Below, one piece after another: positions 1,768-29,219 of a DNA stretch of 32,000 nucleotides. The position numbers and the translations under genes were made by a program. Position 1 is the stretch's first letter. The number at the start of each line of letters is the position of its first letter. Source of the DNA: Nostoc sp. PCC 7120 = FACHB-418. GTDB lineage: Bacteria; Cyanobacteriota; Cyanobacteriia; Cyanobacteriales; Nostocaceae. Below the pieces are notes generated by a model. That model worked only from the letters and a program-made list of their open reading frames with translations, was not told where the DNA came from and searched no databases. The stretch is taken from assembly GCF_000009705.1 (NCBI RefSeq), contig NC_003272.1, positions 3,390,001 to 3,422,000 of the forward strand, written 5' to 3'.

Positions 1768-4700
1768 GTGCAAAAACTAACTTCATCCTACGAATATCAA
1801 GTTGGCGGTCGTCTCAGAGTTGATGCACCTAGCTATGTAGTACGGCAGGCAGACAAAGAGCTTTACAATGCTCTCAAAGCAGGTGAGTTTTGTTACGTTC
1901 TCAACTGTCGGCAGATGGGTAAATCTAGCTTGCGGGTGCAGGTTACTAAACGTCTGCAAGAAGATGGTATTGCTTGTACAACAGTTGACCTCTCAGGAAT
2001 TGGCAACAGCAACATCACCTCTAACCAGTGGTATGCAGACATCATTATGCGACTGGTGCGGAGTTTCCAGCTTTCTACTGAAGTTAATGTTCATAATTGG
2101 TTAGGAGAAAGACAAGACCTGTCTCCAGTCGGTCGCTTGGCTGAATTATTACAATCTGTTTTACCGGAATTGATTCAGCAGCCAATTGTGATTTTCTTTG
2201 ATGAAATCGACAGTACTATTAGCTTGCCATTTAATACTGATGATTTTTTTGCCCTGATTCGTGCTTGTCACGAACATAAGCGTTTTACTTTTGCGCTGTT
2301 GGGTGTGGCTACGCCTTCCGATTTAATTACAGATAAAGCTCGCACACCGTTTAATATTGGACGAGCAATTGAGTTAAATGGGTTTAATCTGGCAGAAGTT
2401 CAACCTTTAGAAATAGGATTGGCGAATACAGTAGAAAATCCTCAAGCAGCACTGAAGGAAATACTGGCTTGGACGGGAGGTCAACCATTTTTAACTCAAA
2501 AACTTTGTCAATTAGTTACACAGCATTGGCATTGGGAAACAGGAGAACAGGGAAGCTTTTCTGCCATAGAATCCCCTTTCCTCAAGAAACTGATGCAGGA
2601 GATATTGACTCCAAGCGAGGCGATAGCTGACCAAGTATCTGCTATAGTGCGATCGCATATCGTCGAAAATTGGGCTTCCCTCGATGAACCACCCCATTTA
2701 AGAACCATCCGCGACAGATTACTTTGCCACGAACAACGCGCCAGCAGATTATTGGGACTATATCTGCAAATCTTACAAAACGATAATGTGCCTGCCGACG
2801 ATTCACCAGAAAAAATCGAATTGCTCCTATCAGGGTTAGTTGTTAAAAAACAAGGTAGCTTACAAGTTTATAATCGCATCTATCAAGAAGTTTTTAATTT
2901 AGAGTGGGTAGAGAAGCAATTAAAAAAGTTACGTCCCTACGCAGATTTAATTAACGCTTGGGTAGCCTCAAATTATCAGGATGAAACCAACCTGCTGCGA
3001 GGACAAGCCCTCAAAGATGCTCAAACTTGGGCCAAGGGCAAGAGTTTGAGTAATATGGATTATCGCTTTTTAGCCGCCAGTGAGGAACTAGAGAAACGCG
3101 AGGTACAGAGTGCGCTAATTGCATCTCAACAAGCAAACCAAATCCTTCTCACCGCCGAACAGCAAGCAAAACAAACAATTAGGCAGGGAGTGGTGAGATT
3201 ATCCGCCCTGTCTCTAGTGACTGTTTCTCTTTTGGGATTATCAGGTTTACTTACATGGCAAACCGCGCAACAAAAGCGACAAGTAAGCTTAGGCGAGATT
3301 AAAGCTTTGGCTCTCTCCTCAGAAACAGCTTTTGAGTCCCATAATAACTTTGATGCTTTACTCGAAAGTCTCAAGGCTGGTATCAAGTTAAACCAGATTG
3401 GTTGGAAAAACGCAGATACAGAATTACAGGTGCAGGTAGAAAAGAATTTACGTCAGTCTCTATATTGGGTACGTGAACGCAATCGTTTAGTAGGTCATGG
3501 GGATGTAGTCACAAGAGTTAAATTTAGCCCCGATGGAGAAAAACTCGCCAGTGCCAGTTGGGATAAAACCGTGAAAATTTGGCAGCGTGACGGTAAATTA
3601 TTGCATACCTTGCGTGGTCATACGGATGCAGTGTGGAGCGTTAATTTTAGCCCTGACGGCAAAATGTTGGTCAGTGCTAGTCGAGATAAAACCGTGAAAG
3701 TCTGGCGTGTGGAGGATGGTCAAGAAATTGCCACCTTAACTCATCAAAATTGGGTAGCGTGTATCGGATTTAGCCCTGATAGTAAGACAGTGGCATCAAT
3801 GGAATGGAATGGGACAATGAGACTCTGGAACCTCCAAGGACAGGAGTTAAAATCTTTCCCTACCCATAAAGCCCCAGTTGTTGCTGTCCATTTCAGCCCC
3901 AAGGGAAACATGATTGCTACCGCTAGTCGAGATGGTACAGCAAAGGTTTGGTCTTTAGATGGCAAAGAATTATTGTCTCTGGGAGGCCATAAGAATTGGG
4001 TAATGTATGTTAATTTCAGTGAGGATGGCAAAAACCTAGTAACAGCAAGTCGAGACAAAACCGCGAAAATTTGGGATTTACAAGGGAAAGAACTAGCAAC
4101 ACTACGCGGTCATAGTGATACCGTTGCTAGTGCAGTATTCAGCCGCGACGGTCAAACTATTGCTACTGCAAGCTCGGATAAAACCGTGCGACTCTGGAAC
4201 CGCAAAGGCGAAGAATTGCAAGTTTTTTGGGGACATACCGATGCTGTTTGGGGTGTCAACTTAAGCAAAGATGGAAAACTTCTAGTTAGCAGTGGCGAAG
4301 ATGGGACGGTGAGATTGTGGAATATGGAAAACGGGGAAGCCGGAAAATTTCAATCCCTAAGTTTCAATCTTGGTGAAGCTGCGGCAGGAACTATTAGTTT
4401 TAGCCCTGATGGTAAAATTTTGGGTACAACTGGTCGTTACACAATGGCGAAACTCTGGAATCACCAAGGACAAGAACTAGTAACACTTAACGGTCATAGC
4501 GACACCTTAAGAAGTCTGCAATTCAGCCCAGATGGACAGATTATCGCTACCGCCAGCCGAGATAAAACAGTCAAACTGTGGAATTTAAATGGTAAAGAAA
4601 GAGCAACTTTGCACGGACATCAAGCAGATGTCAGAAGCGCAACTTTCAGCCCCGACAGTAAAACCATCGCTAGTGCAAGCTGGGATACAACAGTTAAACT

Positions 4701-5337
4701 GTGGAATTTGAATGGTAGAGAAATCATGACTTTGCGCGGACATCAAGCCGGCGTGAGAAATGTTAGTTTCAGTCCTGATGACCAAATTATCGCTACCGCA
4801 AGTGAAGATGGAACGGCTAAACTCTGGAATCGCCAGGGACAAGAACTAGTTACCCTCAAAGGACATCAAGCAGGGATACAGGCTGTAAGCTTCAGTCCTG
4901 ATAGTCAAGTTATCGCCACAGCCAGTAAAGATAAAACCGTGAAACTCTGGAACCGACAGGGGAAAGAGCTATTGACTCTGCTGGGACACAGAGGTGAGGT
5001 GAATGCTGTAAGTTTTAGCCCGAATAGAGAAACCATTGCTACAGCCAGTGAAGACATGACAGTCAAGCTGTGGAACCTTAAAGGAGGACAGATGCAAACC
5101 CTTTCAGGTCTTGATGCTGGAGTTAAAAGCGTGAGTTTTAGCCCAGATGGAAAGGTTTTGGCTTCCTCTGATTCCCTGGGTAAAGTCACTCTCTGGAATT
5201 TAGATTTTGATTCCAGTCCTGAGAAATTGTTGGCGCAGGCTTGTAATTGCGTGAGGGATTATTTACTCAATAGTGCAGATATCAAAGAGCATGAGAGGGT
5301 TTTGTGCGATAAGCTCGGTACAGTAAAAGCATTATAG
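1768..5337 (+). CDS. AAA_35-type (STAND-like) P-loop NTPase, single TM helix, 14 WD40 repeats (1189 aa)
   Basis: GTG start at 1768. Walker A is NCRQMGKSS and Walker B is IVIFFDEID, set in the YEYQVGG...GGQPFLTQK context typical of the cyanobacterial AAA-like domain. A hydrophobic helix [20 protein letters not shown] lies at about nt 3200-3260. There are 14 units of the type FSPDG...ASxDKTVKLW with a 41-42 aa period, from about nt 3490 to 5220. Confidence 0.9.
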
Positions 5338-5351
5338 TCAGTAACTCATCG

Positions 5352-6545
5352 TTAAACAGCAGAAATATTATTTCTAGCAAGAGGATGAAGCCGATTTGTT
5401 AAAGCTTCTAATTCACCGCCAGCAAGCAGCAATTCAATCACTTCACGACCTTGAGAAATAAAGGTTTCAACTTGCTCTTCAAAGGTGATAGTACCTCGAA
5501 ATACTTCAGCTAAAGGTTTCCTGAGATGAAGAGGATGCCAACGATTTGGTTTCGCTACTTCAAATATGTGATCGTGAAAATCCCATTTACCGAAATTGCT
5601 TTTCAATCTTGAGCGTAATTTAGTATATTCATCAGAATGCAAAAAATGTCCTTCAAATGATTTCCATTTGTGTATATCAAAAGTTATAATCAAGCAGAAA
5701 TCGGGACTTAAATAGGGCTTGGAAGGCTGCACACGATGATCAGAACCATCTAAAAGAGTACCAATGAATATACCTGGAAACCACCCATCCAAAATATCTA
5801 ATCCTAATCGTCCCCACTGATATTTCACTTCCATAAAAGGAATAGGTGCATCTTTATTAAATCCAATTTTTTCTGCTACCCAACGCCAATCTGCTTCAGC
5901 AGCGCGTAATGTTATGTTTTTCAGATTAGGTATTAATGATTGAGCAGGTAAATAAGAAATTATACTTTCATAAGAAACTGGTGCTGCTGGGCCTAAATTC
6001 TCCTCTGCAAGCATATCTATAAAATCATGAACTAGACTATCTTCTGATTTTGTTTCTAACCAATGTTTCAAAAACCTATATACATCACTCCAATTCAGAG
6101 CTAAATCAGGCTGTTGTTCATGTTGTCGAGTTAATCCAGTAATTAGAATTAATTTGTATCCTTGTGACCATTTCAAATTTGCTTCTGCATATTCACGATA
6201 TTTATCTAATTGACCTGGATGTAAATATGACCATACCTTGTGTTCAAATATCAAGGCAAATTTTCCAAAATCTGCCACCATATCTATTTGTCCACCAGGA
6301 AATGTATATTGAGTTTTCCACTCAGGTAATATGTGAGTTAAAGGAAGAGGTTCTGGTAATTTTTGATTGAGATAATCTACAAATTCACGCGCCAGCAACT
6401 CTTTATTTCTCAAAAGCCAAGCAAAACCTTCAGTAATAAAATTCTCAATTGGATCGAGTTCTTGGCTTTTGGGATATTTACGTAATGCGCTAAACAAGCT
6501 ATCTGACACGCCTGTATCCTCCATAGCTTTAAAGGTGTCTACCAT
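5352..6545 (-). CDS. PD-(D/E)XK (RecB/Cas4-like) nuclease-fold protein with uncharacterised C-terminal half (397 aa)
   Basis: The N-terminal region carries, in order, E (ENFITEGFAWLL), D (GGQIDMV), ExK (LIFEHKVW) and QxxxY (GQLDKY). This is the classic RecB-family arrangement, at about nt 6200-6440. The C-terminal roughly 230 aa has no motif I recognise. The stop lies 14 nt from the stop of the convergent AAA_35-WD40 gene. Confidence 0.7.
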   Translation of the reverse strand: MVDTFKAMEDTGVSDSLFSALRKYPKSQELDPIENFITEGFAWLLRNKELLAREFVDYLNQKLPEPLPLTHILPEWKTQYTFPGGQIDMVADFGKFALIFEHKVWSYLHPGQLDKYREYAEANLKWSQGYKLILITGLTRQHEQQPDLALNWSDVYRFLKHWLETKSEDSLVHDFIDMLAEENLGPAAPVSYESIISYLPAQSLIPNLKNITLRAAEADWRWVAEKIGFNKDAPIPFMEVKYQWGRLGLDILDGWFPGIFIGTLLDGSDHRVQPSKPYLSPDFCLIITFDIHKWKSFEGHFLHSDEYTKLRSRLKSNFGKWDFHDHIFEVAKPNRWHPLHLRKPLAEVFRGTITFEEQVETFISQGREVIELLLAGGELEALTNRLHPLARNNISAV

Positions 6546-6734: not shown

Positions 6735-8780
6735 TTATGCAAACAAGAACTGTGCAGTATTGCCAGATGCCAGATTTAACCCGATGTTATCTGAGGTAAA
6801 TCCCCCGACACCGCGTAACTCGGCTAATAACTCACCTGAACCAAATCCTGTATTTCCAGTCACCCCGTCACCTAAATGGAAATAGGTATTGCGGCCATGC
6901 ACCACTACATCGATCGCCTCGATACCTTCAAATTGCAATAAATCTCCGCCTGCACCACGCTGGAACTGATGGATCACATCACTGCCATCACCTTGACGAT
7001 ATATTACTGTATCAATGTGGCGATCACTTCCCAAATACAGGGTATCGTTTCCTAGCCCACCTACGAGAATATCAGTACCTGTTCCAGCATAAAGGATATC
7101 ATTACCTTCACCACCGCGCAAAATATCATCGCCACTCAAACCCCCAATAATGTCATTACCACCTTGACCGTTGATGACATCATCGGAGTTGTCAAAGCCA
7201 CGTACATGATTATCTAAATCATTCAGGAAGGTGACGGTGTTGCGATTCCAAATTCTGTTTTGCGTGGAGTCTGCGTCAAAGACATCAAAACTATCTTGCA
7301 GGGTTTCATCACCATCAAACATGATGTTACCAATCTGACCATGCTGACCACCAGGAATCGGCAAGTTATCCAGGTTTTCTAAAGCAAAGTCCTTGAGAAT
7401 CACTTGGGTATCATCAACCCCTTCAAAACTGACAACTAAATCATCACCAGTTTGGGTAAGGAGCAAGTTTTTGGCAACTAAACCCTCTCCTGTAAATATG
7501 AGTTCATCAAAGGTTTCCCGCACTTCCAGCGAGGGATTGCTTCCCCGTCCTACTCCCTGAAACCCTTCTACCTCAATAGTGCGATCGCCACGGTTGACTT
7601 TAACTGGATAGATATTGCTATCAGGATTCGCCGTTGATGCAGAATTTTGGATGAAACGCACTCCACCCATATCCCGCAATAGACCACCTGATTGAACAAA
7701 GATTGCGCCCCCACGGCCTTGACCATTTTGAAAGCCACTACCACCAACAGCAGAATTGAAGAGAAATGAACTGTTCCTGACGTTGAAGGTGGCGCTGTTA
7801 GAGACAAAGACTGCACCTCCTAAACCTGCACCACCGCCGCCTTGTCCTCCCACACCGCCGTTACCTGGACTGTTGCCGTTAAAGGTTGAGCGACCATTAC
7901 CTCCATTCGCCCCATCGCGTCCAGCCCCAGCAAATGCGCCAGCTGCACCCCCAAGACCACCAGCACCACCGGGGCGAGCTTGTCCTCCCAACACGTTAGC
8001 ACCGCCGCCACCACCACCGCCGCCGCCACCACCGCCACCACCATAGCCACCAAAACCACCGCCGCCGCCACCAGTAGCATTTCGGAAAGCACCAGCACCG
8101 CCAGCACCGCCACCTCCGCCGCCGCCACTACCGCCACCAACACCAAAGCCTCCTGAGCTACCACTCACACCGCCACCAGCTCCCAAGCCTGTACTTCCGA
8201 CTATCCGACCAGCAGCACCACCGTTACCCCCACTAGTTGGGACTATACCTCCAATGGCAAAGAAACTTGGTAAGCCACCACTACCACCAGGAAAGCCATT
8301 GCTCCCAGCCGAGGAATCATTTCCACCCCGCCCACCGTCGCCACGACCAGTAAAACTATTACCTCCGACTGCTCGGTTATCAAAAAACACAACATTATCT
8401 GCTGTGACATTAGCACCTGGATTCAGAAACAGGCCACCTCCAGCACCTAAACCGCCACCGCCACCCCGACTACCGTTGCCTCCTTGAGCAAGACCCCTGT
8501 TAATCTGCAAATTATTAAATGTAACAGTGCTGTTATCAATCAGAAATAGGGAAGTGCGCCCCTGTCCATTGAAGCCAGTAAAACTAGTGCCATTCCCCTG
8601 AAAGTTAATGCTATTGCCTTGTCTGATGACAACTGGACTATTTAAGAGAGCAATGCCATTAATAGCGATCGTATCTGTTCCTGGTAAGGCTTCGGCGGCT
8701 GTGACAGCTTCTCGTAGGCTCAACAGCCCATCATTAGGATTAACAACATCATTGAGTGTAGTAACGGTAAAAGTTGCCAT
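6735..8780 (-). CDS. Gly-rich secreted RTX-type protein (681 aa): N-terminal CSLREA-like beta-helix start, poly-Gly core, C-terminal Ca-binding GGxGxD repeats
   Basis: The N-terminus is TVTTLNDVVNPNDGLLSLREAV. There are long GGxGG runs including about 14 consecutive Gly. Nonapeptide repeats GGNDIIGGLSGDDILRGGEGNDILYAGTGTDILVGGLGNDTLYLG lie at about nt 7025-7170. There is no N-terminal signal peptide, which fits a type I secretion substrate. Confidence 0.85.
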   Translation of the reverse strand: MATFTVTTLNDVVNPNDGLLSLREAVTAAEALPGTDTIAINGIALLNSPVVIRQGNSINFQGNGTSFTGFNGQGRTSLFLIDNSTVTFNNLQINRGLAQGGNGSRGGGGGLGAGGGLFLNPGANVTADNVVFFDNRAVGGNSFTGRGDGGRGGNDSSAGSNGFPGGSGGLPSFFAIGGIVPTSGGNGGAAGRIVGSTGLGAGGGVSGSSGGFGVGGGSGGGGGGGAGGAGAFRNATGGGGGGFGGYGGGGGGGGGGGGGGANVLGGQARPGGAGGLGGAAGAFAGAGRDGANGGNGRSTFNGNSPGNGGVGGQGGGGAGLGGAVFVSNSATFNVRNSSFLFNSAVGGSGFQNGQGRGGAIFVQSGGLLRDMGGVRFIQNSASTANPDSNIYPVKVNRGDRTIEVEGFQGVGRGSNPSLEVRETFDELIFTGEGLVAKNLLLTQTGDDLVVSFEGVDDTQVILKDFALENLDNLPIPGGQHGQIGNIMFDGDETLQDSFDVFDADSTQNRIWNRNTVTFLNDLDNHVRGFDNSDDVINGQGGNDIIGGLSGDDILRGGEGNDILYAGTGTDILVGGLGNDTLYLGSDRHIDTVIYRQGDGSDVIHQFQRGAGGDLLQFEGIEAIDVVVHGRNTYFHLGDGVTGNTGFGSGELLAELRGVGGFTSDNIGLNLASGNTAQFLFA

Positions 8781-8882
8781 GTGAGTATCCTTTGATTAAT
8801 AAATGTAGGCAGAATAGGGAATATCACCACCTTTGGAGAAGCGGCGTTACATTTAGTTTTAATTTGTGGATTTTAAGAAAAA

Positions 8883-9143
8883 TTAAGAGTAAATTACACC
8901 ACGATATTTTAAATTTCTCCGTGGTTGGGAAATTGTAGATATAACTTGGTTTTTAATATAAAGTGCGCCACGATAAATTAGAGTTTGATGTGTTGGTACA
9001 TTTTGATTAACAACTGAATAGTTAATATTGTAATCAGCACCACGATACTTTAAAGATACTTTTGCTGCTGTTATTTTAGATAAAGGATAATCACACTTAT
9101 AGGGTAATAATTGATAATTTATTTCCATCTTATTAAGCCTCAT
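8883..9143 (-). CDS. DUF4278-like small protein with three (K/I)YRGxxY motifs; start uncertain (9197, 9143 or 9128)
   Basis: The motifs KYRGADY, IYRGALY and KYRGVIY recall the cyanobacterial DUF4278 YRG-repeat family. ATG codons at 9143 and 9128 are in frame within the 104-codon ORF. Confidence 0.5.
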   Translation of the reverse strand: MRLNKMEINYQLLPYKCDYPLSKITAAKVSLKYRGADYNINYSVVNQNVPTHQTLIYRGALYIKNQVISTISQPRRNLKYRGVIYS

Positions 9144-9237
9144 TGTAAGTGAATAAACTGCTAGTTTGCTGCAACATTTTATTTTTTGTTTCAGCAATGA
9201 TTTATTTATAGGATTTCTAGAAATTAATGTCGATGTA

Positions 9238-9281
9238 TAAAAGTTAAGGATTTAGCACAGAGTCGATTTACTTAACTTTTA
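9238..9281. repeat. Palindromic hairpin TAAAAGTTAAG-N22-CTTAACTTTTA (CTTAACTTTT family); candidate terminator or protein-binding site after the three-gene cassette
   Basis: An 11-bp perfect inverted repeat read directly. It lies about 260 nt downstream of the stop at 9541 on the minus strand. Confidence 0.5.
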
Positions 9282-9540
9282 GCTAGCGCAGTGGGTACAA
9301 TCTGACGCACCTGTAGGGGATAATCCTGGTATTCAACGGACGAGTTTTGGATTTGATGATCGCACTGTGTCAGGTAAAGGTATCTCTGCTATGTTGTATT
9401 ATCAGCAAGAGGAAGTACCTTCAGGACATGATAGAACACCCGCACCGATCAAGCAAAATGCCCGTGTGTTGAGAAAATATTGCTGGGTAGACAGAGGATA
9501 CTTTGGAAGAGAGCGATCGCCAGTGAATCTAATCACGTAT

Positions 9541-10953
9541 CTACATATTACGTGTAGCAGTTGGTCTTAAGGCATCTTCAAAATACTGTCGATATAACTC
9601 ACAACTGGATATAACCTGATTTCCTTGCAGCTTGACTAACCCCATGCTGTGCAACTTAAATGCTAAAATCTGTTCCAACTCCACAGGATTTGATGAACGG
9701 ATTACTTCCTCATAGGCTGCTGCTAATTGCGGATGTTCTTGTAAGCTTCTTAAATGGCGATGCAAGTGATTACTATAAATACCTGCATCTGTAGCTGCGG
9801 TTTGGATTAACTGCTTAAAAGTCAAGTCTTGTTGCGCTAAATGATATAAAGCTTGCTGTATTAGATACGGATGTCCAGCCACAAGCTGCATCAATTCTGA
9901 TAACTCATTTTCAGATAAATGAATTCCATAACGTTGGGCTAAATTGCATACCTGCACAGGTGTAAATGTTTGCAATTCAATTGCTAAACCCACATTAAAG
10001 GGTGATTTATTAATATCTAGAGGAATATATACTTCTGTGGAATGAACAATTACCAAACGCAAATTTTGCCACAGAGGATTACCGATATCTCCATAAGCAG
10101 CTTCTTCATACCAAGAACGCAATAAAGTAAAGAAATCATCAGCAATTTCTGGATGTAAAAACACCTCATCAACTTGATCTAAAGCTAAGACCAAAACACC
10201 ATTAATTTCTGGTAGCACACAATCTTCAAAATAAGCGGTGCAGTTGCTTTTACTGCCAAAAGTTGCGCTCCAATAATCCTCTACTCGATGGGGTAACTGA
10301 AGCTTACGAGTAATCGCAGCACAAAACCAACGCAAGAATTTATCTAAGTCATTAAAAATAGCACTTTCAGCTCGCTGTAAGCTCAAAGCTACAGTACGTA
10401 CTGAAGAATTTTGTTGTTGAGCATGGGCTAAAATTCTTACCATTAAAGAAGTCTTACCCATTTGACTGGGTGCTTTAATACGAATCAACGCCCCATCTCT
10501 GGTAATTTCCTCATAACAGCGAGACTCTACCGGAGGACGTTCCATATACAAAGCAGAGTCCAATGCTATGACTCCAACTGGTGATTCTAATTCTAGGGAT
10601 TGGGGATTAATAACTGGCGATTGGGAGTTGGCTAATGAGGAAGAGTTTTCGATTTTTAATTCTTCAGATGCTCGTTGTGCGAGGACAGCCATCAAATTAG
10701 TTTTACTGACTTTTTCCCCTAAACTAGCTGAAAGTATCTGCCATAGTTTCGGGCCAACATCATGTTTGATGTACTCAGGAGCGTAGTCACGTTCTTCGGC
10801 AATTTTATCATATTTTTGACCTAGCAAAGCTCCTCGTAGTACAGCTACTTCAATGTTTTTCAGATGTCTTTTAGTTTTGGCAAATACTGCGGCATCTACT
10901 ATTTTCAAAGCTGCTTCAAATGTGATTGCTATTTCTTGAATTATTTCCGTCAT
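9541..10953 (-). CDS. HTH-like N-terminal module fused to an AAA_35-type P-loop NTPase (470 aa), with no repeat or effector domain
   Basis: The N-terminal roughly 95 aa contains YDKIAEERDYAPEYIKHDVGPKLWQILSASLGEKVSKTNL, a helix-turn-helix-like module common at the N-termini of cyanobacterial signalling NTPases. Walker A is APSQMGKTSL and Walker B is VLVLALDQVDE. The C-terminus has the helical/winged-helix-like VAGHPYLIQQALY region. Confidence 0.8.
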   Translation of the reverse strand: MTEIIQEIAITFEAALKIVDAAVFAKTKRHLKNIEVAVLRGALLGQKYDKIAEERDYAPEYIKHDVGPKLWQILSASLGEKVSKTNLMAVLAQRASEELKIENSSSLANSQSPVINPQSLELESPVGVIALDSALYMERPPVESRCYEEITRDGALIRIKAPSQMGKTSLMVRILAHAQQQNSSVRTVALSLQRAESAIFNDLDKFLRWFCAAITRKLQLPHRVEDYWSATFGSKSNCTAYFEDCVLPEINGVLVLALDQVDEVFLHPEIADDFFTLLRSWYEEAAYGDIGNPLWQNLRLVIVHSTEVYIPLDINKSPFNVGLAIELQTFTPVQVCNLAQRYGIHLSENELSELMQLVAGHPYLIQQALYHLAQQDLTFKQLIQTAATDAGIYSNHLHRHLRSLQEHPQLAAAYEEVIRSSNPVELEQILAFKLHSMGLVKLQGNQVISSCELYRQYFEDALRPTATRNM

Positions 10954-11011
10954 TTTCTTTAATGTTTATAAATTTATTTTATTTTTTAATTAATAGATAG
11001 CTTCGGATTTC

Positions 11012-11761
11012 TTAACTTACTTTATCTGCTAATTTTTGTAGGGTTTGAGTGAATGGATGGTCAGGATATTGTAAACAAAATATGCCACTACTGCCCAGTT
11101 GTGCCATATCTTCCGAAAGTGGCAATATACCTGCAACTGGAACGTTATAAGTTTTCTCTACTTTTTGCTGTAGTGATGCAAAATTCATGCGATTTGGTAT
11201 CTTATTAATGACCATCATCATCTCGCGGACTTGCAGTTGACGAGCAATATTCACGGTTACTGCCGTGCCTTGAAAGTCTTGGCGATCTGGACGCAGGATA
11301 ATAATTAACAAGTCAGAAATAGCGATACATAGTAAAGTTTCTCGGCTTAATCCAGGGTGAGTATCAATAAATAAGTAGTCTAATTTTAATTCTTTAATTA
11401 ATCTTTGAAAGCCAGTATTTAGTAAACTAACGTTGTATCCTTCGCTCAAAATTTTGGCAATTTCATCAGCATTGATACTAGAGGGTATGAGGAAAACTGT
11501 TCCCTGAGAAATTGCTAGATGAGAAGTAACATCACAGGCGGTATCCTCAATACAACTACGATTCCACAAATAGTCATTTAAGGTTTTGCCTGTAATTGTC
11601 TTATCAATACCAAATAGAGCATGAATGCCCGGAGATTGTAAATCAGTATCTACAATTGCCACTCGCTTTTCTTGAAGTGCCATTGCGACTGCTAAATTCG
11701 CTGTTAAGTTAGATTTACCTGTTCCACCTCGAAAGGAGTGAATCGCAATAATTTTAGACAT
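11012..11761 (-). CDS. MinD/ParA-family (SIMIBI) ATPase, 249 aa, deviant Walker A with Arg in place of the signature Lys
   Basis: The Walker A region is IAIHSFRGGTGKSNLTANLA, where the family consensus is KGGxGK[ST]. A switch-like VAIVDTDLQSPG and a Walker B YLFIDTHPG are present. The gene is co-directional with its neighbours, with gaps of 22 nt upstream and 58 nt downstream. Confidence 0.85.
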   Translation of the reverse strand: MSKIIAIHSFRGGTGKSNLTANLAVAMALQEKRVAIVDTDLQSPGIHALFGIDKTITGKTLNDYLWNRSCIEDTACDVTSHLAISQGTVFLIPSSINADEIAKILSEGYNVSLLNTGFQRLIKELKLDYLFIDTHPGLSRETLLCIAISDLLIIILRPDRQDFQGTAVTVNIARQLQVREMMMVINKIPNRMNFASLQQKVEKTYNVPVAGILPLSEDMAQLGSSGIFCLQYPDHPFTQTLQKLADKVS

Positions 11762-11783
11762 AGAATACTAATTCGTATTGGGA

Positions 11784-12194
11784 TTAAGATATCTTGCTAT
11801 TGCGAAGATATTTAACTTCTATCTGCAATTGTTGAAAATATTCTGTTTGAGTTATTTCTGCTACTTGATGTGCAAGTTTGTTTAAATCAATCTCTATTTG
11901 CATTTCTTGGAGTTGGAGTTTTTTCTCCTTTTCCTGCTGTTGCAATAGGCTTTCTAATTCAGCTTTTTCTTGCTTCACAACTGCCAATTTTTGCTGCAAA
12001 TTTGCAACTTCTGCCCTTAAACTCTCTTCGGTATCTTGTAAGTAAAATTTAACTTTGTGTTTTACCTGATTCTTCCTTAACTGCTTCTGGGTTAGTCTGG
12101 AAGCATTATTCCTTACTGCATTGTTGAAAGCAATGAGGTTAATTACGTTTGCTGGAACTACTTCGATACCAATATTAAGGGGATGTTGGGGCAT
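11784..12194 (-). CDS. Coiled-coil protein (136 aa) with a basic N-proximal peptide
   Basis: A clean ORF. It carries the basic stretch RLTQKQLRKNQVKHKVK, followed by roughly 80 aa rich in Glu/Gln/Lys/Leu with heptad character (LRAEVANLQQKLAVVKQEKAELESLLQQQEKEKKLQLQEMQIEIDL). It is the first gene of the cassette. Confidence 0.6.
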   Translation of the reverse strand: MPQHPLNIGIEVVPANVINLIAFNNAVRNNASRLTQKQLRKNQVKHKVKFYLQDTEESLRAEVANLQQKLAVVKQEKAELESLLQQQEKEKKLQLQEMQIEIDLNKLAHQVAEITQTEYFQQLQIEVKYLRNSKIS

Positions 12195-12277
12195 GATTTA
12201 CTCCATGTCATCAACGTCTGCGTTGGGAGTGGCGGATCTTTACTTTCTTAGAATGACGCGATCGCCTGACATAATGA

Positions 12278-12320
12278 AAGATCAGTTTTGTCATAAAGCG
12301 GTACTTGTAAAACTGATCTT
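12278..12320. promoter_or_regulatory. Perfect 12-bp inverted repeat AAGATCAGTTTT-N19-AAAACTGATCTT, 84 nt upstream of the cassette start codon
   Basis: Read directly. It shares the 10-nt core AAGATCAGTT/AACTGATCTT with the palindrome at 13485-13530. Each arm contains GATC. Confidence 0.55.
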
Positions 12321-12353
12321 GACAAAAGACATTATTTATAGATGGAAATCAAT

Positions 12354-13253
12354 TTAGCCAGGATTTGCTGGGGAGTATTCCCCAAATCGCCAACGTAGGG
12401 AAGTAGCATTGCAGCTTTCCAACACTTGCTCAATAGCAAACTCTACTAAACGTTGCGCCCCTGCAAATTCAGTTAATCTTGCCACATCCCAAATTACCTG
12501 TGCTTTACCAGTGATTTGTAAGGTATGCCCTTTTTCAAAGTCGATAAATAATAAACCTGCTTTGGGATTTACATTTAAGTTACCAAAGGTTTGAAACATA
12601 TTATTTCCAGAGTAATCAGGAAAAACAAGCTGATTACTATTCACAACTTGTATAAACCCTGGAAAGCCTCCTCGGTGGGAAGCATCAGCCCCACTTTCTG
12701 GATGATAACTAGCGATGAAAAAAGTGTCTGCTTGGGTTATCCAAAGTTGATTGGTATCACTTAAACTATCTCTGGTAAAAGCTTCAGGTTGTTCTATTGC
12801 ATCAATTACCGCTTTTTCTATATGACGTATTTGGATGTATTTAGGACAGTTAAAAAATACCTGCTGAATTTCTACTTTGATATGCTTTTGATTTACCTCT
12901 GCTTTGCCATTTAAACGTAAACGCCGACGGTTTGCTAAATCAATTACCAATAGACCAATATCATTATTGACTTTTAGGTTTTGGTGTAGAGGATCGGTTT
13001 GTATGGGGATAGTATTAATCTGTATTGTTTGTGTGTTTAATACTTCTACAAAACCAGGGTTTTCTGTTAACAACGATGCCCAGACTCTACCTTCTGTGTC
13101 CACTGTACTAGCAACTGCTAATTGTTGTGTGTGCAGGAACTCCTCAGCAGGTGGTTTGATGGTGCTACTGATGAAATGACATAGACGTTGCGCCTCTTCT
13201 CGCACGCCCGCCTGAGTTTGGACTGTAATTTCTCCAGAATGAAAAGAAGACAT
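12354..13253 (-). CDS. Pyridoxamine 5'-phosphate oxidase-related FMN-binding (split-barrel) family protein, 299 aa
   Basis: The N-terminus reads FHSGEITVQTQAGVREEAQRL...LAVASTVDTEGRVWASLLTENPGF, typical of the PNPOx-like family. A second barrel-like half contains FFIASYHPESGADASHRGG. Confidence 0.7.
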   Translation of the reverse strand: MSSFHSGEITVQTQAGVREEAQRLCHFISSTIKPPAEEFLHTQQLAVASTVDTEGRVWASLLTENPGFVEVLNTQTIQINTIPIQTDPLHQNLKVNNDIGLLVIDLANRRRLRLNGKAEVNQKHIKVEIQQVFFNCPKYIQIRHIEKAVIDAIEQPEAFTRDSLSDTNQLWITQADTFFIASYHPESGADASHRGGFPGFIQVVNSNQLVFPDYSGNNMFQTFGNLNVNPKAGLLFIDFEKGHTLQITGKAQVIWDVARLTEFAGAQRLVEFAIEQVLESCNATSLRWRFGEYSPANPG

Positions 13254-13484
13254 TTTACTAACTCGTCATAGTCTAGGGCTAGGCTAACGGCTACGTAATT
13301 CAAAGTTCCGGTCTAATAGCTAAAGTTCACTGAAGTGGACTGAATGGAATTTCTCATTGAATCCTCTTGAGAGGAGTACTATGAGACTCGGAATGGATTC
13401 TGAGGCGGGATAGATGCCCTCTTAGAAATCACATCGTATATTTCCTATACATTTCTTTAGTATTTTTTATATAAACTCTATTTT

Positions 13485-13530
13485 CCAAGATCAGTTTTGG
13501 ATTGATGGGTTGAAAGATAACTGATCTTGG
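13485..13530. promoter_or_regulatory. Perfect 12-bp inverted repeat CCAAGATCAGTT-N22-AACTGATCTTGG upstream of the NB-ARC-WD40 gene
   Basis: Read directly. It lies 16 nt before ATG 13546 and 85 nt before the in-frame GTG at 13615. An AT-rich stretch with TATAAA precedes it. Confidence 0.55.
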
Positions 13531-13545
13531 CGATCGCAGAATTTT

Positions 13546-16500
13546 ATGATATTGCAATCAACGTCACTGTTCTGTAAATATATAAATAATTGCAGGTATA
13601 TTAACCGAGAAATCGTGGCTACTCTCAAAGCTTCTCCACAGGGACTCGCAAGAATTAAACAAGCTAGAAGTGATAGGGGTTGGTCTGTTGATGATTTTAG
13701 ATGGCTAGAATTAGCCAGTGAAATTTTAGGTGTTTGTTGGCAAGAAAATGGTGTTCTCGCTGCTGGGATATCAGAAGGAACATGGAAGCGTTTCTTGGCT
13801 GGGAAGCAAGCGATTAATGCTGAAGCTTTTAAAGCTTACTGTCAGGTACTGGGGTTGAATTGGGAAGAGGTGCAGGAGGGAGGACGCACCAAGGAACGAA
13901 AAGACACAGGAACAAGCAGACAAGAAAAATTTTTGTCATCTTCCCATCCTCATACAGATTGGGGTGAAGCACCTGATGTATCTATTTTTTATGGTCGAAG
14001 TGAAGAACTAGACACGGTGAAGCGATGGGTTACACAAGAAAATTGTCGCTTGATAACGCTGCTGGGAATGGGTGGAATTGGAAAAACGACACTTTCTGTA
14101 AAACTAGCGCAGGAAATTATCAACAGCGAGAAAATTTATCTTTCCCAGTCCCCTGAATACATAATTTGGCGTAGTTTGCGAAACGCGCCACCAGTGGAAG
14201 ATATTTTGGCGGAGTTAATTCAATTTTTATCTGGACAGCAGGAAACAAATTTATCAAATCATCTACAGGGGAGAATTTCGCTGTTACTCAAAAATTTACG
14301 TTCGTCGCGCTGTCTAATTATTTTGGATAATGCTGAGTCAATTTTACAAGCAGGCGATCGCAATGGTCGTTATCGTGCTGGATGTGAAGGTTACGGTCAA
14401 TTCCTACAATGTATAGCAGAAACTTCCCACCAAAGTTGTTTAATTCTCACTTCACGGGAAAAACCCCAAGGACTGGCTAAGTATGAAGGTGATAGTTTGC
14501 CAGTACGTTCTCTACCACTGACAGGGTTACAAGAACAAGAAGGACGCGAATTATTTAATGTTAAGGGTAAATTTGCTGCTTCTTGTGACCAATGGCAAGT
14601 TTTAATTTCACGCTATGGCGGTAATCCTCTAGCTCTCAAAATTGTAGCGTCTTCCATCCGCGACTTTTTTGATGGTGATGTTTCCCAATTTCTGGAAGTT
14701 TCTCAGCAAGGTACATTCATTTTTGATGATATTCGGGATTTACTTGACCAACAATTCCAGCGTCTCACAACTCTGGAACGAGAGATTATGTACTGGTTAG
14801 CCATCAATCGTGAACCTGTAACTTTAGCAGAGTTACAAGCCGATTTTGTTGCTAATATCCCACCCCGTGAACTGCTAGAGTCCCTAAGTTCTCTACAAAG
14901 ACGTTCTTTAATTGAAAAAAGTGCTGGCGGGTTTACTCAGCAACCTGTAGTAATGGAGTATGTGAGCAATCATTTAATTGAGCAAGTGTGTGAGGAGATG
15001 AGGGAATGGGGACTGGTAAGAAGCAGGGGTGCAGAGGAGCAGAGGAGCAGGGGAGAGAAAATACACACTCAATACAAGCTAAACGCCGCGCTTCCGCTAA
15101 CAGCACTCAGCACTCCCTTATTTACTACTCATGCACTCATTAAGGCACAAGCTAAAGATTATGTGCGGGAGAGTCAAATTAGTTTGATTCTTCAGCCTCT
15201 AATCAATCAATTAATTACAGAATTTGGCAGTCTGGAAAATATCAGTAATTGTCTGGTTCACATCCTCTCTAGGCTACGGGGTAAGTCGCCCCAAGAAACG
15301 GGCTATGCTGGAGGGAATGTTCTTAATTTGCTGCATCATGCACAAGTTGACCTCAGTGGCTATGATTTTTCGGGGTTAACTGTTTGGCAAGCTTATCTTC
15401 AAGGCGTAAACCTCCATGATGTGGATTTTGCTAACTCAGATTTATCTTGCTGTGTATTTACGGAAACATTAGGTAATATTTTATCGGCTGCTTTTAGTCC
15501 CGAAGGTCAACTTTTAGCAACCTGCGATACTGACTGTCATGTGCGTGTATGGGAAGTGAAAAGCGGGAAATTATTACTAATTTGTCGAGGACATAGTAAT
15601 TGGGTGCGCTTTGTGGTGTTTAGCCCAGATGGAGAAATATTAGCGAGTTGCGGCGCTGACGAGAATGTGAAACTTTGGAGTGTCCGCGATGGTGTTTGTA
15701 TAAAAACGTTAACTGGGCATGAACATGAGGTATTTTCTGTAGCGTTTCATCCAGACGGTGAGACTCTAGCCAGTGCAAGCGGTGACAAGACAATCAAACT
15801 CTGGGATATTCAAGATGGTACTTGCTTGCAAACGCTGACAGGACATACAGATTGGGTGCGTTGCGTTGCTTTTAGTCCAGATGGTAACACTTTAGCGAGT
15901 AGTGCGGCTGACCACACAATTAAACTGTGGGATGTGTCTCAAGGTAAATGCTTGAGAACGTTAAAATCACATACAGGATGGGTGCGTTCCGTAGCCTTTA
16001 GTGCAGATGGACAAACCTTAGCTAGTGGTAGCGGCGATCGCACAATTAAAATTTGGAATTATCATACAGGTGAATGTCTGAAAACCTATATCGGACATAC
16101 TAACAGCGTCTATTCTATTGCCTATAGTCCTGATAGTAAAATTTTAGTCAGTGGTAGTGGCGATCGCACAATTAAACTCTGGGATTGTCAAACCCATATC
16201 TGCATCAAAACTCTACACGGACACACTAATGAAGTTTGTTCCGTCGCCTTTAGCCCAGATGGTCAAACACTAGCTTGTGTTAGTTTAGACCAAAGCGTGA
16301 GGCTCTGGAATTGTCGCACTGGTCAATGTTTGAAAGCTTGGTACGGTAATACAGATTGGGCATTACCTGTAGCTTTTAGTCCTGATAGACAGATTTTAGC
16401 TAGTGGTAGTAACGACAAAACAGTTAAACTCTGGGATTGGCAAACCGGCAAATACATCAGCAGCTTAGAAGGGCATACCGATTTTATTTATGGAATTGCC

Positions 16501-17322
16501 TTTAGTCCAGACAGTCAAACCCTAGCTAGTGCGAGTACAGATTCCTCAGTCAGATTGTGGAACATTAGCACAGGTCAATGCTTCCAGATTTTACTCGAAC
16601 ATACAGATTGGGTGTATGCTGTTGTGTTTCATCCCCAAGGTAAAATCATCGCCACCGGTAGCGCTGACTGTACAGTCAAGCTATGGAATATTAGCACAGG
16701 TCAATGTCTCAAAACCTTGAGCGAACATAGCGATAAAATCCTGGGAATGGCTTGGAGTCCAGACGGGCAACTTTTAGCTAGTGCTAGTGCTGATCAATCT
16801 GTGAGACTATGGGATTGTTGTACAGGTCGTTGTGTTGGCATATTGCGAGGACATAGTAATCGCGTTTACTCAGCTATCTTTAGCCCCAATGGAGAAATTA
16901 TTGCCACTTGCAGCACCGACCAAACAGTGAAAATATGGGATTGGCAGCAGGGTAAATGCCTCAAAACCTTGACTGGACATACTAACTGGGTATTTGATAT
17001 TGCTTTTAGCCCTGATGGAAAAATCCTGGCCAGCGCATCCCATGACCAAACCGTAAGAATTTGGGATGTTAACACAGGAAAATGTCATCATATCTGCATT
17101 GGGCATACACACTTAGTTTCTTCTGTGGCTTTTAGTCCAGATGGGGAAGTGGTCGCTAGTGGTTCTCAAGACCAAACCGTGAGGATTTGGAATGTAAAAA
17201 CTGGTGAATGTTTGCAGATTTTGCGGGCGAAACGGCTTTATGAGGGAATGAATATTACTGGTGTCACAGGGTTAACAAAAGCTACAATTTTCACATTACA
17301 AGCTCTTGGTGCTTTGAGATAG
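13546..17322 (+). CDS. NLR-like STAND protein: N-terminal HTH-like module, NB-ARC NTPase, pentapeptide repeats, 14 WD40 repeats (1258 aa)
   Basis: The P-loop LLGMGGIGKTTL, Walker B CLIILDNAES, LILTSREKP and GGNPLALK match the NB-ARC motifs of Apaf-1 and plant R proteins. The N-terminus ends in AFKAYCQVLGLNWEEV. Pentapeptide units are VDLSGYDFSGLTVWQAYLQGVNLHDVDFANSDLS. There are 14 x 42-aa WD40 units from about nt 15460 to 17220. An alternative GTG start lies at 13615. Confidence 0.9.
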   Translation: MILQSTSLFCKYINNCRYINREIVATLKASPQGLARIKQARSDRGWSVDDFRWLELASEILGVCWQENGVLAAGISEGTWKRFLAGKQAINAEAFKAYCQVLGLNWEEVQEGGRTKERKDTGTSRQEKFLSSSHPHTDWGEAPDVSIFYGRSEELDTVKRWVTQENCRLITLLGMGGIGKTTLSVKLAQEIINSEKIYLSQSPEYIIWRSLRNAPPVEDILAELIQFLSGQQETNLSNHLQGRISLLLKNLRSSRCLIILDNAESILQAGDRNGRYRAGCEGYGQFLQCIAETSHQSCLILTSREKPQGLAKYEGDSLPVRSLPLTGLQEQEGRELFNVKGKFAASCDQWQVLISRYGGNPLALKIVASSIRDFFDGDVSQFLEVSQQGTFIFDDIRDLLDQQFQRLTTLEREIMYWLAINREPVTLAELQADFVANIPPRELLESLSSLQRRSLIEKSAGGFTQQPVVMEYVSNHLIEQVCEEMREWGLVRSRGAEEQRSRGEKIHTQYKLNAALPLTALSTPLFTTHALIKAQAKDYVRESQISLILQPLINQLITEFGSLENISNCLVHILSRLRGKSPQETGYAGGNVLNLLHHAQVDLSGYDFSGLTVWQAYLQGVNLHDVDFANSDLSCCVFTETLGNILSAAFSPEGQLLATCDTDCHVRVWEVKSGKLLLICRGHSNWVRFVVFSPDGEILASCGADENVKLWSVRDGVCIKTLTGHEHEVFSVAFHPDGETLASASGDKTIKLWDIQDGTCLQTLTGHTDWVRCVAFSPDGNTLASSAADHTIKLWDVSQGKCLRTLKSHTGWVRSVAFSADGQTLASGSGDRTIKIWNYHTGECLKTYIGHTNSVYSIAYSPDSKILVSGSGDRTIKLWDCQTHICIKTLHGHTNEVCSVAFSPDGQTLACVSLDQSVRLWNCRTGQCLKAWYGNTDWALPVAFSPDRQILASGSNDKTVKLWDWQTGKYISSLEGHTDFIYGIAFSPDSQTLASASTDSSVRLWNISTGQCFQILLEHTDWVYAVVFHPQGKIIATGSADCTVKLWNISTGQCLKTLSEHSDKILGMAWSPDGQLLASASADQSVRLWDCCTGRCVGILRGHSNRVYSAIFSPNGEIIATCSTDQTVKIWDWQQGKCLKTLTGHTNWVFDIAFSPDGKILASASHDQTVRIWDVNTGKCHHICIGHTHLVSSVAFSPDGEVVASGSQDQTVRIWNVKTGECLQILRAKRLYEGMNITGVTGLTKATIFTLQALGALR

Positions 17323-28574: not shown

Positions 28575-29219
28575 ATGCTGCGAGGAAATATGCTGTTAAC
28601 TGAACTTCGTGCTGATCGGGTAGTTCTCCATAATATTAGTTGGCAACAATTTGAGAATTTATTAGTAAATTTAGGTGAAAGTAGAGCAGCTAGGATTGCT
28701 TACGATGATGGCACTTTAGAGATTATGACCCCATTACCAGAACACGAATATTATAAAGAAATAATTGGTGACATTATCAAAGATACGGCTGAAGTTTTAG
28801 AGTTAGATTATGAATGTTATGGTTCAACTACCTGGAAACGAGAATTAAAAAAGGCTGGGATAGAATCTGACAATTGCTTTTATTTCCAAAATGAAGCCTT
28901 AATTAGAGGTAAGCTCAGTTTTGATTTAAATCAAGACCCACCTCCAGATTTAGCTTTAGAAATTGATGTTACGAGTAAATCATTAGATAGATTTCCTCTC
29001 TATGTTCGGTTAGGTGTGCCTGAAATCTGGTGTTATGATGCTGGAGACATCAAAATTTACCAATTGCAAGGTGAGAAATATATCCAAACCGAAACAAGTT
29101 TAGTATTTCCTAATTTAAATATTCAAGAAATTCCATCACTAATTGAAAGATACCGCATGGCGGGAAGGCGGGTATTTCGACAAGTAATTAGGGAATGGGT
29201 ACGAGGACAGATGGGGTAA
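28575..29219 (+). CDS. Uma2-family (DUF820) PD-(D/E)XK-like endonuclease; the real start is possibly ATG 28590
   Basis: It carries WQQFENLL...RIAYDDGTLEIMTPLPEHE, DLALEIDVTS and LGVPEIWCYD, which are hallmark Uma2 blocks. Confidence 0.85.
   Translation: MLRGNMLLTELRADRVVLHNISWQQFENLLVNLGESRAARIAYDDGTLEIMTPLPEHEYYKEIIGDIIKDTAEVLELDYECYGSTTWKRELKKAGIESDNCFYFQNEALIRGKLSFDLNQDPPPDLALEIDVTSKSLDRFPLYVRLGVPEIWCYDAGDIKIYQLQGEKYIQTETSLVFPNLNIQEIPSLIERYRMAGRRVFRQVIREWVRGQMG

Follow-up and report, generated by a model that had tools for sequence, protein, structure and literature searches.

What do three closely spaced minus-strand genes of Nostoc sp. PCC 7120, all2798, all2797 and all2796, do together, when the first encodes a small coiled-coil protein, the second a MinD/ParA-fold ATPase with an altered Walker A motif and the third a nucleotide-binding protein of the signal transduction ATPases with numerous domains (STAND) type? 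The genes lie in a stretch of 32,000 nucleotides (NC_003272.1, positions 3,390,001 to 3,422,000; hereafter the window, in whose own numbering positions are given), and had been picked out from the letters of the DNA as a candidate undescribed NTPase system (hereafter the original prediction), to be read either as a nucleoid-tethered positioning machine or as a conflict switch. Here, we argue that the part of this cassette that recurs elsewhere is the pair all2798-all2797, which on balance we interpret, from comparative sequence evidence, as one member of a widespread two-gene module in which sensor proteins would drive an ATPase switch. The match of the locus to this proposed module is direct: All2798 ends in the conserved tail described below, All2797 carries the string HSFRGGTGKS, and the two genes lie on the same strand with a gap of 22 nt.

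The products of all2798, all2797 and all2796 are identical to BAB74497, BAB74496 and BAB74495, respectively, with alr2800 (BAB74499) as the anchor for the assignment, and 58 nt separate the second gene from the third. Much of what had been read directly from the sequence was borne out, namely the coordinates of the three open reading frames (ORFs), their gaps, the 159-nt spacer with its palindrome and the 11-bp repeat beyond (Table 1); the Arg deviation FRGGTGKS in a 249-aa protein whose MinD/ParA fold is confirmed by its model; the helix-turn-helix (HTH) and AAA_35 domains of the 470-aa protein, with its GKT and LALDQVDE motifs and its lack of repeats or effector, as judged by Pfam, alignment and model; and the presence of a basic stretch and a coiled coil in the 136-aa protein.

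The conserved determinant of All2798 is its C-terminal tail, a motif of 46 residues. Distant matches of the 136-aa protein all align to its residues ~82-133 and always at the C-terminal end of the matched proteins, which, outside its close relatives, are much larger and are encoded beside the ATPase (80 ATPase-centred loci). The 146 unique copies of the tail give the consensus EQRLKQQVQELRIEIDEAKKARQVAEITETDYFQQLQxKAxxLRxR, in which hydrophobic residues follow a heptad-like pattern and E14, D16, V24, A25, T28 and F33 are near-invariant; a hidden Markov model (HMM) of the tail matches All2798 at E ~1e-21, and no family in Pfam or NCBIfam covers it. The known terminal domains of sensors are kinases, cyclases, signalling domains of methyl-accepting chemotaxis proteins (MCPs) and HTH domains. 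Most tail proteins of the module are sensors, and in these, whose architectures comprise dCache-HAMP, HAMP-PAS, REC-HAMP, GAF, CHASE2, Tll0287-HAMP and a hybrid histidine kinase with PAS, the tail stands in place of such a conventional output domain. A single-sequence search with the 136-aa protein against 1.84 billion representatives returned only 65 matches, because a 46-aa motif scores near the threshold, and this result speaks for the C-terminal position of the tail, not for the size of the family.

Orthologues of all2798 were found only in Nostocales-type cyanobacteria, where they are annotated as hypothetical. Longer versions of 249-273 aa, in which a PAS domain separates the coiled coil from the tail, occur in Chlorogloeopsis (L004), a Leptolyngbyaceae metagenome-assembled genome (MAG; L007) and Leptolyngbya sp. 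IPPAS B-1204 (L169), and because these relatives keep the PAS domain, the 136-aa protein of the Nostocaceae is probably a reduced sensor. The original prediction had pointed to the basic peptide as a candidate stimulator of the ATPase; as the key partner element we dropped it because the stretch is not conserved beyond the closest Nostocales orthologues: it is recognisable only in the four closest aligned sequences (the window and L001-L003) and not in the Egbenema, Chlorogloeopsis or Leptolyngbya versions. Residues ~56-116 of All2798 also show weak similarity to the c-Jun/AP-1 basic leucine zipper (bZIP; E 0.02-0.1), with the basic stretch just N-terminal in a bZIP-like layout, a similarity that we set aside as probably generic to coiled coils.

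All2797, the proposed partner of the tail, scores above the Pfam cut-offs for ParA (71 bits), CbiA (68 bits) and AAA_31 (68.5 bits), and its structural model (predicted local distance difference test, pLDDT, 89) superposes on MinD 1hyq with a template modelling (TM) score of 0.80-0.85, the best folds being archaeal MinD, FlhG, FleN and Soj. The Arg at the signature position, R11, is invariant in 18 aligned clade members, as are K16, D38, D40 and D133, the last four of which align with the motifs of MinD, and by its sequence the protein looks catalytically intact. Conservation within the clade is tight and extends over the motifs HS[YF]RGGTGKSN, DTDLQSPGIH, LNDYLW, IDTHPGL and LRPDxQDFQGT, and metagenomic ATPases encoded beside tail proteins carry the same HS[FY]RGGTGKS string. 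Against the equivalogue-level models of NCBIfam the protein falls far below the cut-offs (minD_bact 51.7 versus 212.9, minD_arch 85.4 versus 201.75 and ParA_partition 63.6 versus 180), and, in line with the original prediction, it belongs to a distinct clade rather than grouping with canonical MinD or ParA proteins. The last core helix (236-248) closes the chain, alignments to MinD structures run to residues 247-248, and neither these alignments nor the model show a C-terminal membrane-targeting extension or helix.

The clade is large. It occurs in at least 593 places of species-representative genomes, mostly in cyanobacteria and also in Chloroflexota; a protein from a Planctomycetia MAG is among the close homologues of All2797, and identity across these three groups is at least 57-60%. 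PCC 7120 itself encodes a paralogue, All2033, that is 59% identical. The sole literature mention of All2797 that we found is a 2020 review in which All2797, All2033 and Synpcc7942_0220 are listed as extra MinD homologues of unexplained function, and in which the true MinCDE of PCC 7120 is assigned to alr3455-asr3457, All2797 being 25.9% identical to the MinD of that system (PMC7766704). A canonical MinD identity for All2797 was ruled out by its Arg signature, the missing membrane-targeting helix, the sub-cut-off scores and the lack of minC or minE, no MinC or MinE being present among the scanned ORFs of the window. Some divergent members of the family carry a C-terminal winged HTH of the IclR/MarR/TrmB-like type (L027:4067-5212, L043:1841-3058 and L038:631-1728), whose Walker A strings differ: L027 and L043 share HSFRHGTGKS, and L038 has GCRHGLGCS. 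The latter lacks the catalytic Lys, and from this string the L038 protein may be inactive.

The tail and the ATPase are found together in both directions of search. A tail-motif protein, detected with the motif HMM, lies within 6 kb of the ATPase gene in 53 of 80 ATPase-centred genome loci. The metagenome loci were picked by the tail alone, with an alignment of seven tail sequences, and here an HS[FY]RGGTGKS ATPase is present in 52 of 80, in 40 of these immediately downstream on the same strand; of the other tail-selected loci, 12 have too little downstream sequence to judge and 16 have no ATPase in the sequence available. Each scan sampled the 80 most similar loci, which biases both sets towards cyanobacteria, and ORFs were called mechanically. 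Across the 56 adjacent tail/ATPase pairs in all the data, the median distance from stop to start is ~45 nt, the ATPase usually starting a few to ~100 nt beyond the tail gene on the same strand, and the short gap in the window is typical. As a control, ~85 kb of AAA_35-centred loci together with the rest of the window contained no further tail and no further ATPase of the clade. By our own reasoning, when a multi-megabase genome carries few members of a clade, the chance that one of them lies within 8 kb of a random gene is well below 1%, and the association is therefore far beyond chance, this chance level being an estimate and not a computed control. We hold it very probable that tails and ATPases of the all2798-all2797 type form functional pairs. 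Neither the tail nor its pairing with the R-signature ATPase clade was found described in Pfam, NCBIfam or the searchable (non-subscription) papers, where, in keeping with the original prediction, no characterised system composed of the two came to light.

What lies downstream of the ATPase differs from one subclade to the next, and in a neighbour-joining tree of the ATPases the subclades match the type of neighbouring gene. Subclade A, which includes the window and L001-L009, has a PNPOx gene, the tail protein, the ATPase and the HTH-AAA_35 gene; subclade B (~25 loci) has the ATPase, a glutaminase and a dCache-HAMP-PAS tail protein, and the paralogue All2033 belongs to a system of this class. 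Subclade C (~15 loci, with L017, L019, L028, L031, L036, L039, L042, L056, L066 and L070 among its members) has, in this order, a dCache-HAMP tail protein, in some cases an 863-aa protein without a Pfam match, the ATPase, a DUF7005 protein, a TIGR03896 cyclic nucleotide (cNMP)-binding protein ('bacteriocin-type transport-associated protein') and HlyD, with Nif11-type peptides and radical-SAM/SPASM genes nearby, a set that suggests sensor control over the export of bacteriocins or of ribosomally synthesised and post-translationally modified peptides (RiPPs). Subclade D consists of DUF928, a CHASE2 tail protein and the ATPase, and subclade E, from Chloroflexota, has REC/GAF-HAMP tail proteins with cyclase-AAA_16 genes nearby. 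In L169, the PAS-tail/ATPase pair is followed (L169:6860-9482) by a gene for a 228-aa protein that falls into no known family and then by genes for a SpoIIE (PP2C) phosphatase, a DUF6272 protein and a SiaC/STAS-like protein, which together look like a partner-switching module. A glutaminase, DUF7005 or a SpoIIE module can thus fill, in other subclades or loci, the slot that all2796 occupies in the window, and because this downstream slot varies between enzymes and regulators, the constant parts of the system are the tail and the ATPase. Of the three-gene unit first proposed, the coiled-coil protein and the ATPase therefore stand as a conserved pair, and the AAA_35 protein does not stand as their general partner.

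In the window, the downstream gene encodes a minimal STAND protein. All2796 scores 503.5 bits against Pfam AAA_35 (cut-off 27), with PF26355 and PF14516 as its precomputed assignments, and consists of a five-helix HTH at residues ~12-104, a disordered linker and, at 125-459, the AAA_35 nucleotide-binding domain, a helical domain and a winged helix, after which it ends; no WD40, TPR or LRR repeats, of the kind that many STANDs carry at the C-terminus, and no effector domain were found in Pfam or in the model. The model (pLDDT 83) has PAB2304 (2qen) and SSO1545 (2fna) as its best folds, followed by Avs3, CED-4, plant NLRs (NRC) and ORC/Cdc6. The Walker A GKTS is invariant, and D259 and E263 of LALDQVDE nearly so. 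Orthologues at 68% identity or more fall into more than 100 clusters, unicellular Crocosphaera included, and a genome typically holds one highly conserved copy, not a member of a diversifying family.

In the genome scan, the orthologous subclade was sampled at 10 loci, namely the window and those of nine GTDB species representatives, and each has an All2796 orthologue on the strand of the ATPase and no more than 6 kb away from it; in nine, this orthologue directly follows the ATPase, with gaps of 9-287 nt, several of them 9-66 nt; the tenth is L007, in which the AAA_35 gene stands ~3.8 kb downstream behind a glutaminase gene. The link between AAA_35 protein and ATPase may be functional, given the same slot, the same strand and the short gaps. 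The synteny expected of the whole cassette was found in part: the three-gene order recurs in 7/10 of these loci, but in six other cyanobacteria (Crocosphaera, Hydrococcus, Cyanosarcina, an Oculatellaceae MAG and two JGI MAGs) an All2796 orthologue of 69-73% identity has neither the ATPase nor a tail gene nearby in any case. There, it adjoins paralogues of the AAA_35-WD40 or AAA_35 type, an alr2800-type gene and DUF4278. In L165, which has no ATPase gene, the next gene upstream of the All2796 orthologue is an alr2800 orthologue (69% identity), and full-length alr2800 orthologues with 64-72% identity occur in L004, L005, L165 and L169; All2796 orthologues have DUF4278 genes in their vicinity in L163, L165 and L166 and adjoining AAA_35-WD40 genes in L161 and L165. 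The window holds the same STAND set, consisting of ORF1189, DUF4278, all2796 and alr2800, with the PNPOx, tail and ATPase genes placed between the last two. The N-terminal region of ORF1189 is 28% identical to the AAA_35 domain of All2796, and its WD40 region resembles the AAA_35-WD40 protein of L161. There is thus a conserved cyanobacterial STAND cluster (L161, L163, L165, L166, L169 and the window) that is independent of the ATPase, and all2796 also belongs to this older grouping with alr2800-type STAND-WD40 genes and DUF4278. The link of AAA_35 to the ATPase is lineage-specific, since six genomes have the orthologue free of the ATPase and L169 has the ATPase free of All2796.

How might a tail and an ATPase act as a switch? 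The tail would prolong the signalling helices of the HAMP, PAS or REC modules that precede it, forming a parallel dimeric coiled coil, and the dimeric tail would dock on the two-fold-symmetric ATPase dimer and set its ATP-dependent cycle of dimerisation and hydrolysis, a role that can be likened to that of MinE, ParB-type or FliM/FliY peptides on their ATPases. The ATP-bound dimer would then bind and control a target, for which the candidates are the product of the gene downstream of the ATPase or the winged HTH fused to it; by subclade, these would be the glutaminase, the DUF7005 protein with the cNMP-binding bacteriocin-transport protein, or the SpoIIE partner-switching set. The wider claim, that dCache/HAMP, PAS, REC, GAF and CHASE2 sensors act through the tail on an Arg-signature ATPase to reach diverse targets, and thereby represent a new mode of signal transduction, is one that we regard as a serious possibility that stops short of being probable. 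In the Nostocales, as a weaker suggestion, the ATPase may gate the oligomerisation or DNA binding of All2796 in the manner of FleN acting on FleQ, and we propose the AAA_35 protein as the target of the switch there only tentatively.

Control of an AAA+ transcription factor by a MinD-like ATPase has a precedent in FleN-FleQ, and the structures of FleN, of the FleN-FleQ pair and of FlhG, the last and FleN being MinD-like ATPases that serve as regulatory switches rather than as positioning motors, are among the fold matches of All2797; the partner of FleN is a transcription factor with an HTH, bound through its AAA+ domain, and all2797 adjoins an HTH-NTPase gene. Unlike FleQ, All2796 has the STAND (AAA_35) fold and not that of a sigma-54 activator, the signature residue of the ATPase differs, and the context is non-flagellar, with no flagellar genes in the window. 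FlhG binds a short conserved 'EIDAL' peptide, the N-terminal motif of FliM/FliY, and its likeness to the invariant-like IEID of the tail is a lead only. MinD with MinE and MinC offers a further parallel, in that archaeal and bacterial MinDs are the best sequence and structure matches of All2797, a dimerising ATPase of the same deviant-Walker-A fold is shared, and the dimer would likewise be engaged, and its cycle set, by a short helical segment of a partner, with its ATP form binding a second protein; the difference is that the partner motif of All2797 is the end of sensor proteins and not a MinE.

Several observations count against the sensor-driven switch. No fusion of tail and ATPase was found in a single protein. 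In the sequence available, the partner is missing from 16/68 informative tail loci and from ~27/80 ATPase loci, and some partnerless loci, such as L138 and L159, have ample flanks. Within the subclade of the window itself, L006, L008 and L009 keep the ParA-AAA_35 arrangement with no detectable tail protein within 6 kb. Adjacent genes are co-inherited in any case, and the match between ATPase subclade and neighbour is no proof of interaction. As for the AAA_35 target, L169, an eleventh member of the subclade that was found later, has no All2796 orthologue within 6 kb, and because L169 and the six ATPase-free genomes separate the two genes, their link could equally be one of inherited gene order. 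The three loci without a tail protein come from Pelatocladus and two Calothrix; they keep the PNPOx gene, and their ATPase-AAA_35 gaps are 9-10 nt.

ParA/MinD ATPases are best known as positioning motors, with few acting as regulators (FleN, FlhG and Soj), and a positioning role is the alternative that survives best, unlikely as we think it. In such a system, gradients of the ATPase on the nucleoid or membrane would space or localise clusters of tail-bearing sensors, the tail being the interaction motif of the cargo; in the window, All2798 would be the adaptor and All2796 the cargo or anchor. The fold and the nearest relatives in sequence and structure are those of MinD/ParA positioning ATPases, with archaeal MinD on top, and one paper concerns an archaeal MinD that reportedly places the motility machinery. 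PpfA-TlpT and ParC-ParP position chemoreceptor arrays, McdA-McdB carboxysomes and archaeal MinD4 motility machinery, and the coiled-coil sensory proteins that partner the present ATPase recall the chemoreceptor systems, an ATPase of the ParA/MinD-like kind being genetically tied to HAMP/coiled-coil sensory proteins in PpfA-TlpT, ParC-ParP and archaeal MinD4 as it is here. Unlike the partners in PpfA-TlpT and ParC-ParP, the tail proteins are not MCPs, there is no che operon, the genes downstream are enzymes or regulators, and the interaction motif is a C-terminal tail borne by many kinds of sensor.

Other features also speak against positioning. The chain of All2797 lacks a membrane-targeting extension at its C-terminus, and the tail carriers include many dCache-HAMP receptors that are integral to the membrane. 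Neither a ParB-like nor a McdB-like gene turned up in the ORF scans of the window, nor did any defined cargo, so that the nucleoid-tethered machine of the original prediction gains no specific support. The third gene, moreover, varies among enzymes and regulators (glutaminase, SpoIIE set, cNMP-binding protein, winged-HTH fusion), which fits regulation better. A ParA of the ParABS type was ruled out by the missing adjacent ParB-like gene and the sub-cut-off ParA_partition score. McdA-McdB comes closer, being a cyanobacterial ParA-type ATPase, sometimes without the signature Lys, with a small coiled-coil partner. McdA of type 1 has a Ser in SGGQGKT and a large mid-protein insertion, that of type 2 the signature Lys and a double Trp, and McdB is encoded downstream of McdA and ends in an invariant Trp (PMC7182216); McdA/McdB was ruled out here, since All2797 has RGGTGKS, a single W (in LNDYLW) and no insertion, and its partner is encoded upstream and ends ...LRNSKIS. 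The clade of All2797 also extends, unlike McdA, to Chloroflexota and a Planctomycetia MAG, and the ORF scans found no carboxysome genes in the window.

Still less likely is a juxtaposition by chance or inheritance that leaves all2798-all2797 as a functional pair and assigns all2796 to the STAND cluster only, with no link to the ATPase. It would account for the six sampled genomes in which the All2796 orthologue lives without the ATPase, beside alr2800-type genes or AAA_35 paralogues and DUF4278, and for L169, which keeps the ATPase pair and alr2800 with a SpoIIE module downstream in place of All2796. It fares less well with the 10/10 subclade loci, which span Nostocales, Chlorogloeopsis, Egbenema and a Leptolyngbyaceae MAG, and with the position of the AAA_35 gene, which sits where the sister subclades have their variable downstream partner; in addition, an AAA_35 gene with 40% identity lies close to a glutaminase-class locus in L023.

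The surroundings of the genes, whose coordinates are collected in Table 1, bear on the last alternative.

Table 1. Positions of the genes, motifs and other features of the window that are discussed in the text.
Feature	Position	Strand	Description
all2798	11784-12194	-	136 aa tail carrier: Nostocales-specific N-terminus, basic stretch, coiled coil, conserved C-terminal tail
Conserved tail motif	11799-11933	-	all2798 residues 88-132, KEKKLQLQEMQIEIDLNKLAHQVAEITQTEYFQQLQIEVKYLRNS
Basic stretch	12048-12104	-	all2798 residues ~31-49, SRLTQKQLRKNQVKHKVKF; net charge +6 in 17-residue windows
all2797	11012-11761	-	249 aa MinD/ParA-fold ATPase, HS[FY]RGGTGKSN clade
Deviant Walker A SFRGGTGKS	11711-11737	-	all2797 residues 9-17; Arg for signature Lys
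all2796	9541-10953	-	470 aa minimal STAND NTPase: HTH_VMAP-M9 + AAA_35
Spacer 5' of all2798	12195-12353		159 nt, between all2798 and PNPOx gene all2799
Perfect 12-bp inverted repeat	12278-12289 / 12309-12320		Within the spacer
HIP1 site	12258-12265		Within the spacer
HIP1 site	9513-9520		Other side of the cassette
Perfect 11-bp inverted repeat	9238-9248 / 9271-9281		22-nt loop, ~260 nt past all2796 stop
all2799	12354-13253	-	Two-domain PNPOx-type flavoprotein; Pfam PNPOx_N, TIGR04025 matches
alr2800	13546-17322	+	NB-ARC/NACHT-WD40 STAND protein
DUF4278 small protein	8883-9197	-	Downstream of all2796; Pfam DUF4278 match
ORF1189, AAA_35-WD40	1768-5337	+	1189 aa; second AAA_35 gene in window; WD40 matches
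Gly-rich protein	6735-8780	-	681 aa
ORF397	5352-6545	-	397 aa
Uma2-domain ORF	28575-29219	+	

We infer that the spacer upstream of all2798 probably holds the promoter of an all2798-all2796 transcription unit; a promoter scan called no consensus promoter in it. The second inverted repeat, just upstream of the DUF4278 ORF, folds weakly as RNA (-8.8 kcal/mol, z = -1.2); with folding z values of -1.7 and -1.2, the two hairpins are both weak, neither was reported by a simple terminator scan, and Rfam gave no match at E<=0.1 over positions 8500-13700. The PNPOx gene lies upstream in 10/10 loci of the ATPase subclade of the window, often with unrelated or opposite-strand genes in between, and is absent from the other subclades; the flavoprotein encoded by all2799 could be a redox or cofactor input. 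Beyond the DUF4278 gene, the 681-aa Gly-rich protein has C-terminal RTX-like repeats (GGxGxD) and lies in a locally GC-rich (0.57) stretch that yields several long shadow ORFs on both strands; in Hydrococcus (L163), a HemolysinCabind protein is likewise encoded downstream of the All2796 orthologue and DUF4278. Two further ORFs are unlinked to the cassette, namely ORF397, with a weak PD-(D/E)XK nuclease match (PDDEXK_4, about at the cut-off), and one with a Uma2 'putative restriction endonuclease' domain.

Base composition had been offered as a hint that the cassette is AT-rich and free of the HIP1 octamer, and it carries little weight. HIP1 (GCGATCGC) occurs 24 times in the window against 0.13 expected from shuffles, as is typical of the host genome; the cassette, bracketed by two sites, has none where 2.0 are expected (Poisson P(0)=0.14), and elsewhere the window contains a longer stretch, of 3.9 kb, without the octamer. 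The cassette has a GC content of 0.372 against 0.421 for the window, a modest AT-richness, and its neighbours are also below the window mean (PNPOx 0.397, ORF397 0.358, DUF4278 0.289). A defence island was dropped as a candidate on these grounds, the HIP1 absence being non-significant and the GC shift modest, together with weak matches to PADLOC and the lack of vWA, MoxR or effector genes in the window.

A two-NTPase conflict or immunity switch, in which an invader would be sensed, and a response set off, by the ATPase acting together with the STAND NTPase, is very improbable: the AAA_35 STAND fold does match Avs, CED-4 and NLR proteins, the N-terminal domain of All2796 is named after the VMAP conflict systems, the neighbours alr2800 and ORF1189 are STAND-WD40 proteins, and MinD/ParA-like domains occur among the effector-associated domains of VMAP-type systems, where they are predicted to be inactive (Kaur et al. 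2020, PMC7159879), but All2797 looks catalytically intact, both proteins are highly conserved with no sign of rapid diversification (the ATPase and All2796 at the identities given above), the cassette and its immediate neighbours contain no vWA, MoxR, nuclease, TIR, caspase or other effector gene, most ATPase family members sit with sensors, metabolic or regulatory genes, and the composition is not island-like. Matches in PADLOC-DB 2.0 were weak and partial, being limited to the P-loop for the ATPase (PDC-M28B, 1e-9, 90 residues) and, for the 136-aa protein, to PbeC at 0.0015, which looks like coiled-coil noise, with no match for the AAA_35 protein. All2796 does resemble the AAA_35/'archaeal ATPase' STANDs and the VMAP-associated HTH proteins in its AAA_35 domain, its PAB2304/SSO1545-like fold and its HTH_VMAP-M9 domain; unlike the VMAP-associated proteins, it has no vWA/MoxR partners, sensor repeats or effector domain. 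The VMAP ternary conflict system has a core of three genes that are always ordered VMAP, MoxR, vWA (PMC7159879), and was rejected here because no scanned ORF of the window has a MoxR or vWA domain and only the HTH_VMAP-M9-type domain is held in common. The second reading of the original prediction is accordingly disfavoured.

If the sensor-driven switch is correct, its consequences would reach well beyond this locus. Many 'output-less' HAMP and PAS proteins would be explained by a tail that couples hundreds of sensors to a MinD-like ATPase, and the extra cyanobacterial MinD homologues All2797, All2033 and probably Synpcc7942_0220 would gain a function. The system would be a simple one, consisting of a 46-residue peptide and a 250-aa ATPase, and would provide direct regulatory inputs into glutaminase, bacteriocin export and the conserved STAND NTPase cluster of multicellular cyanobacteria, and the one- and two-component paradigms of bacterial signalling would be joined by a component of a third kind.

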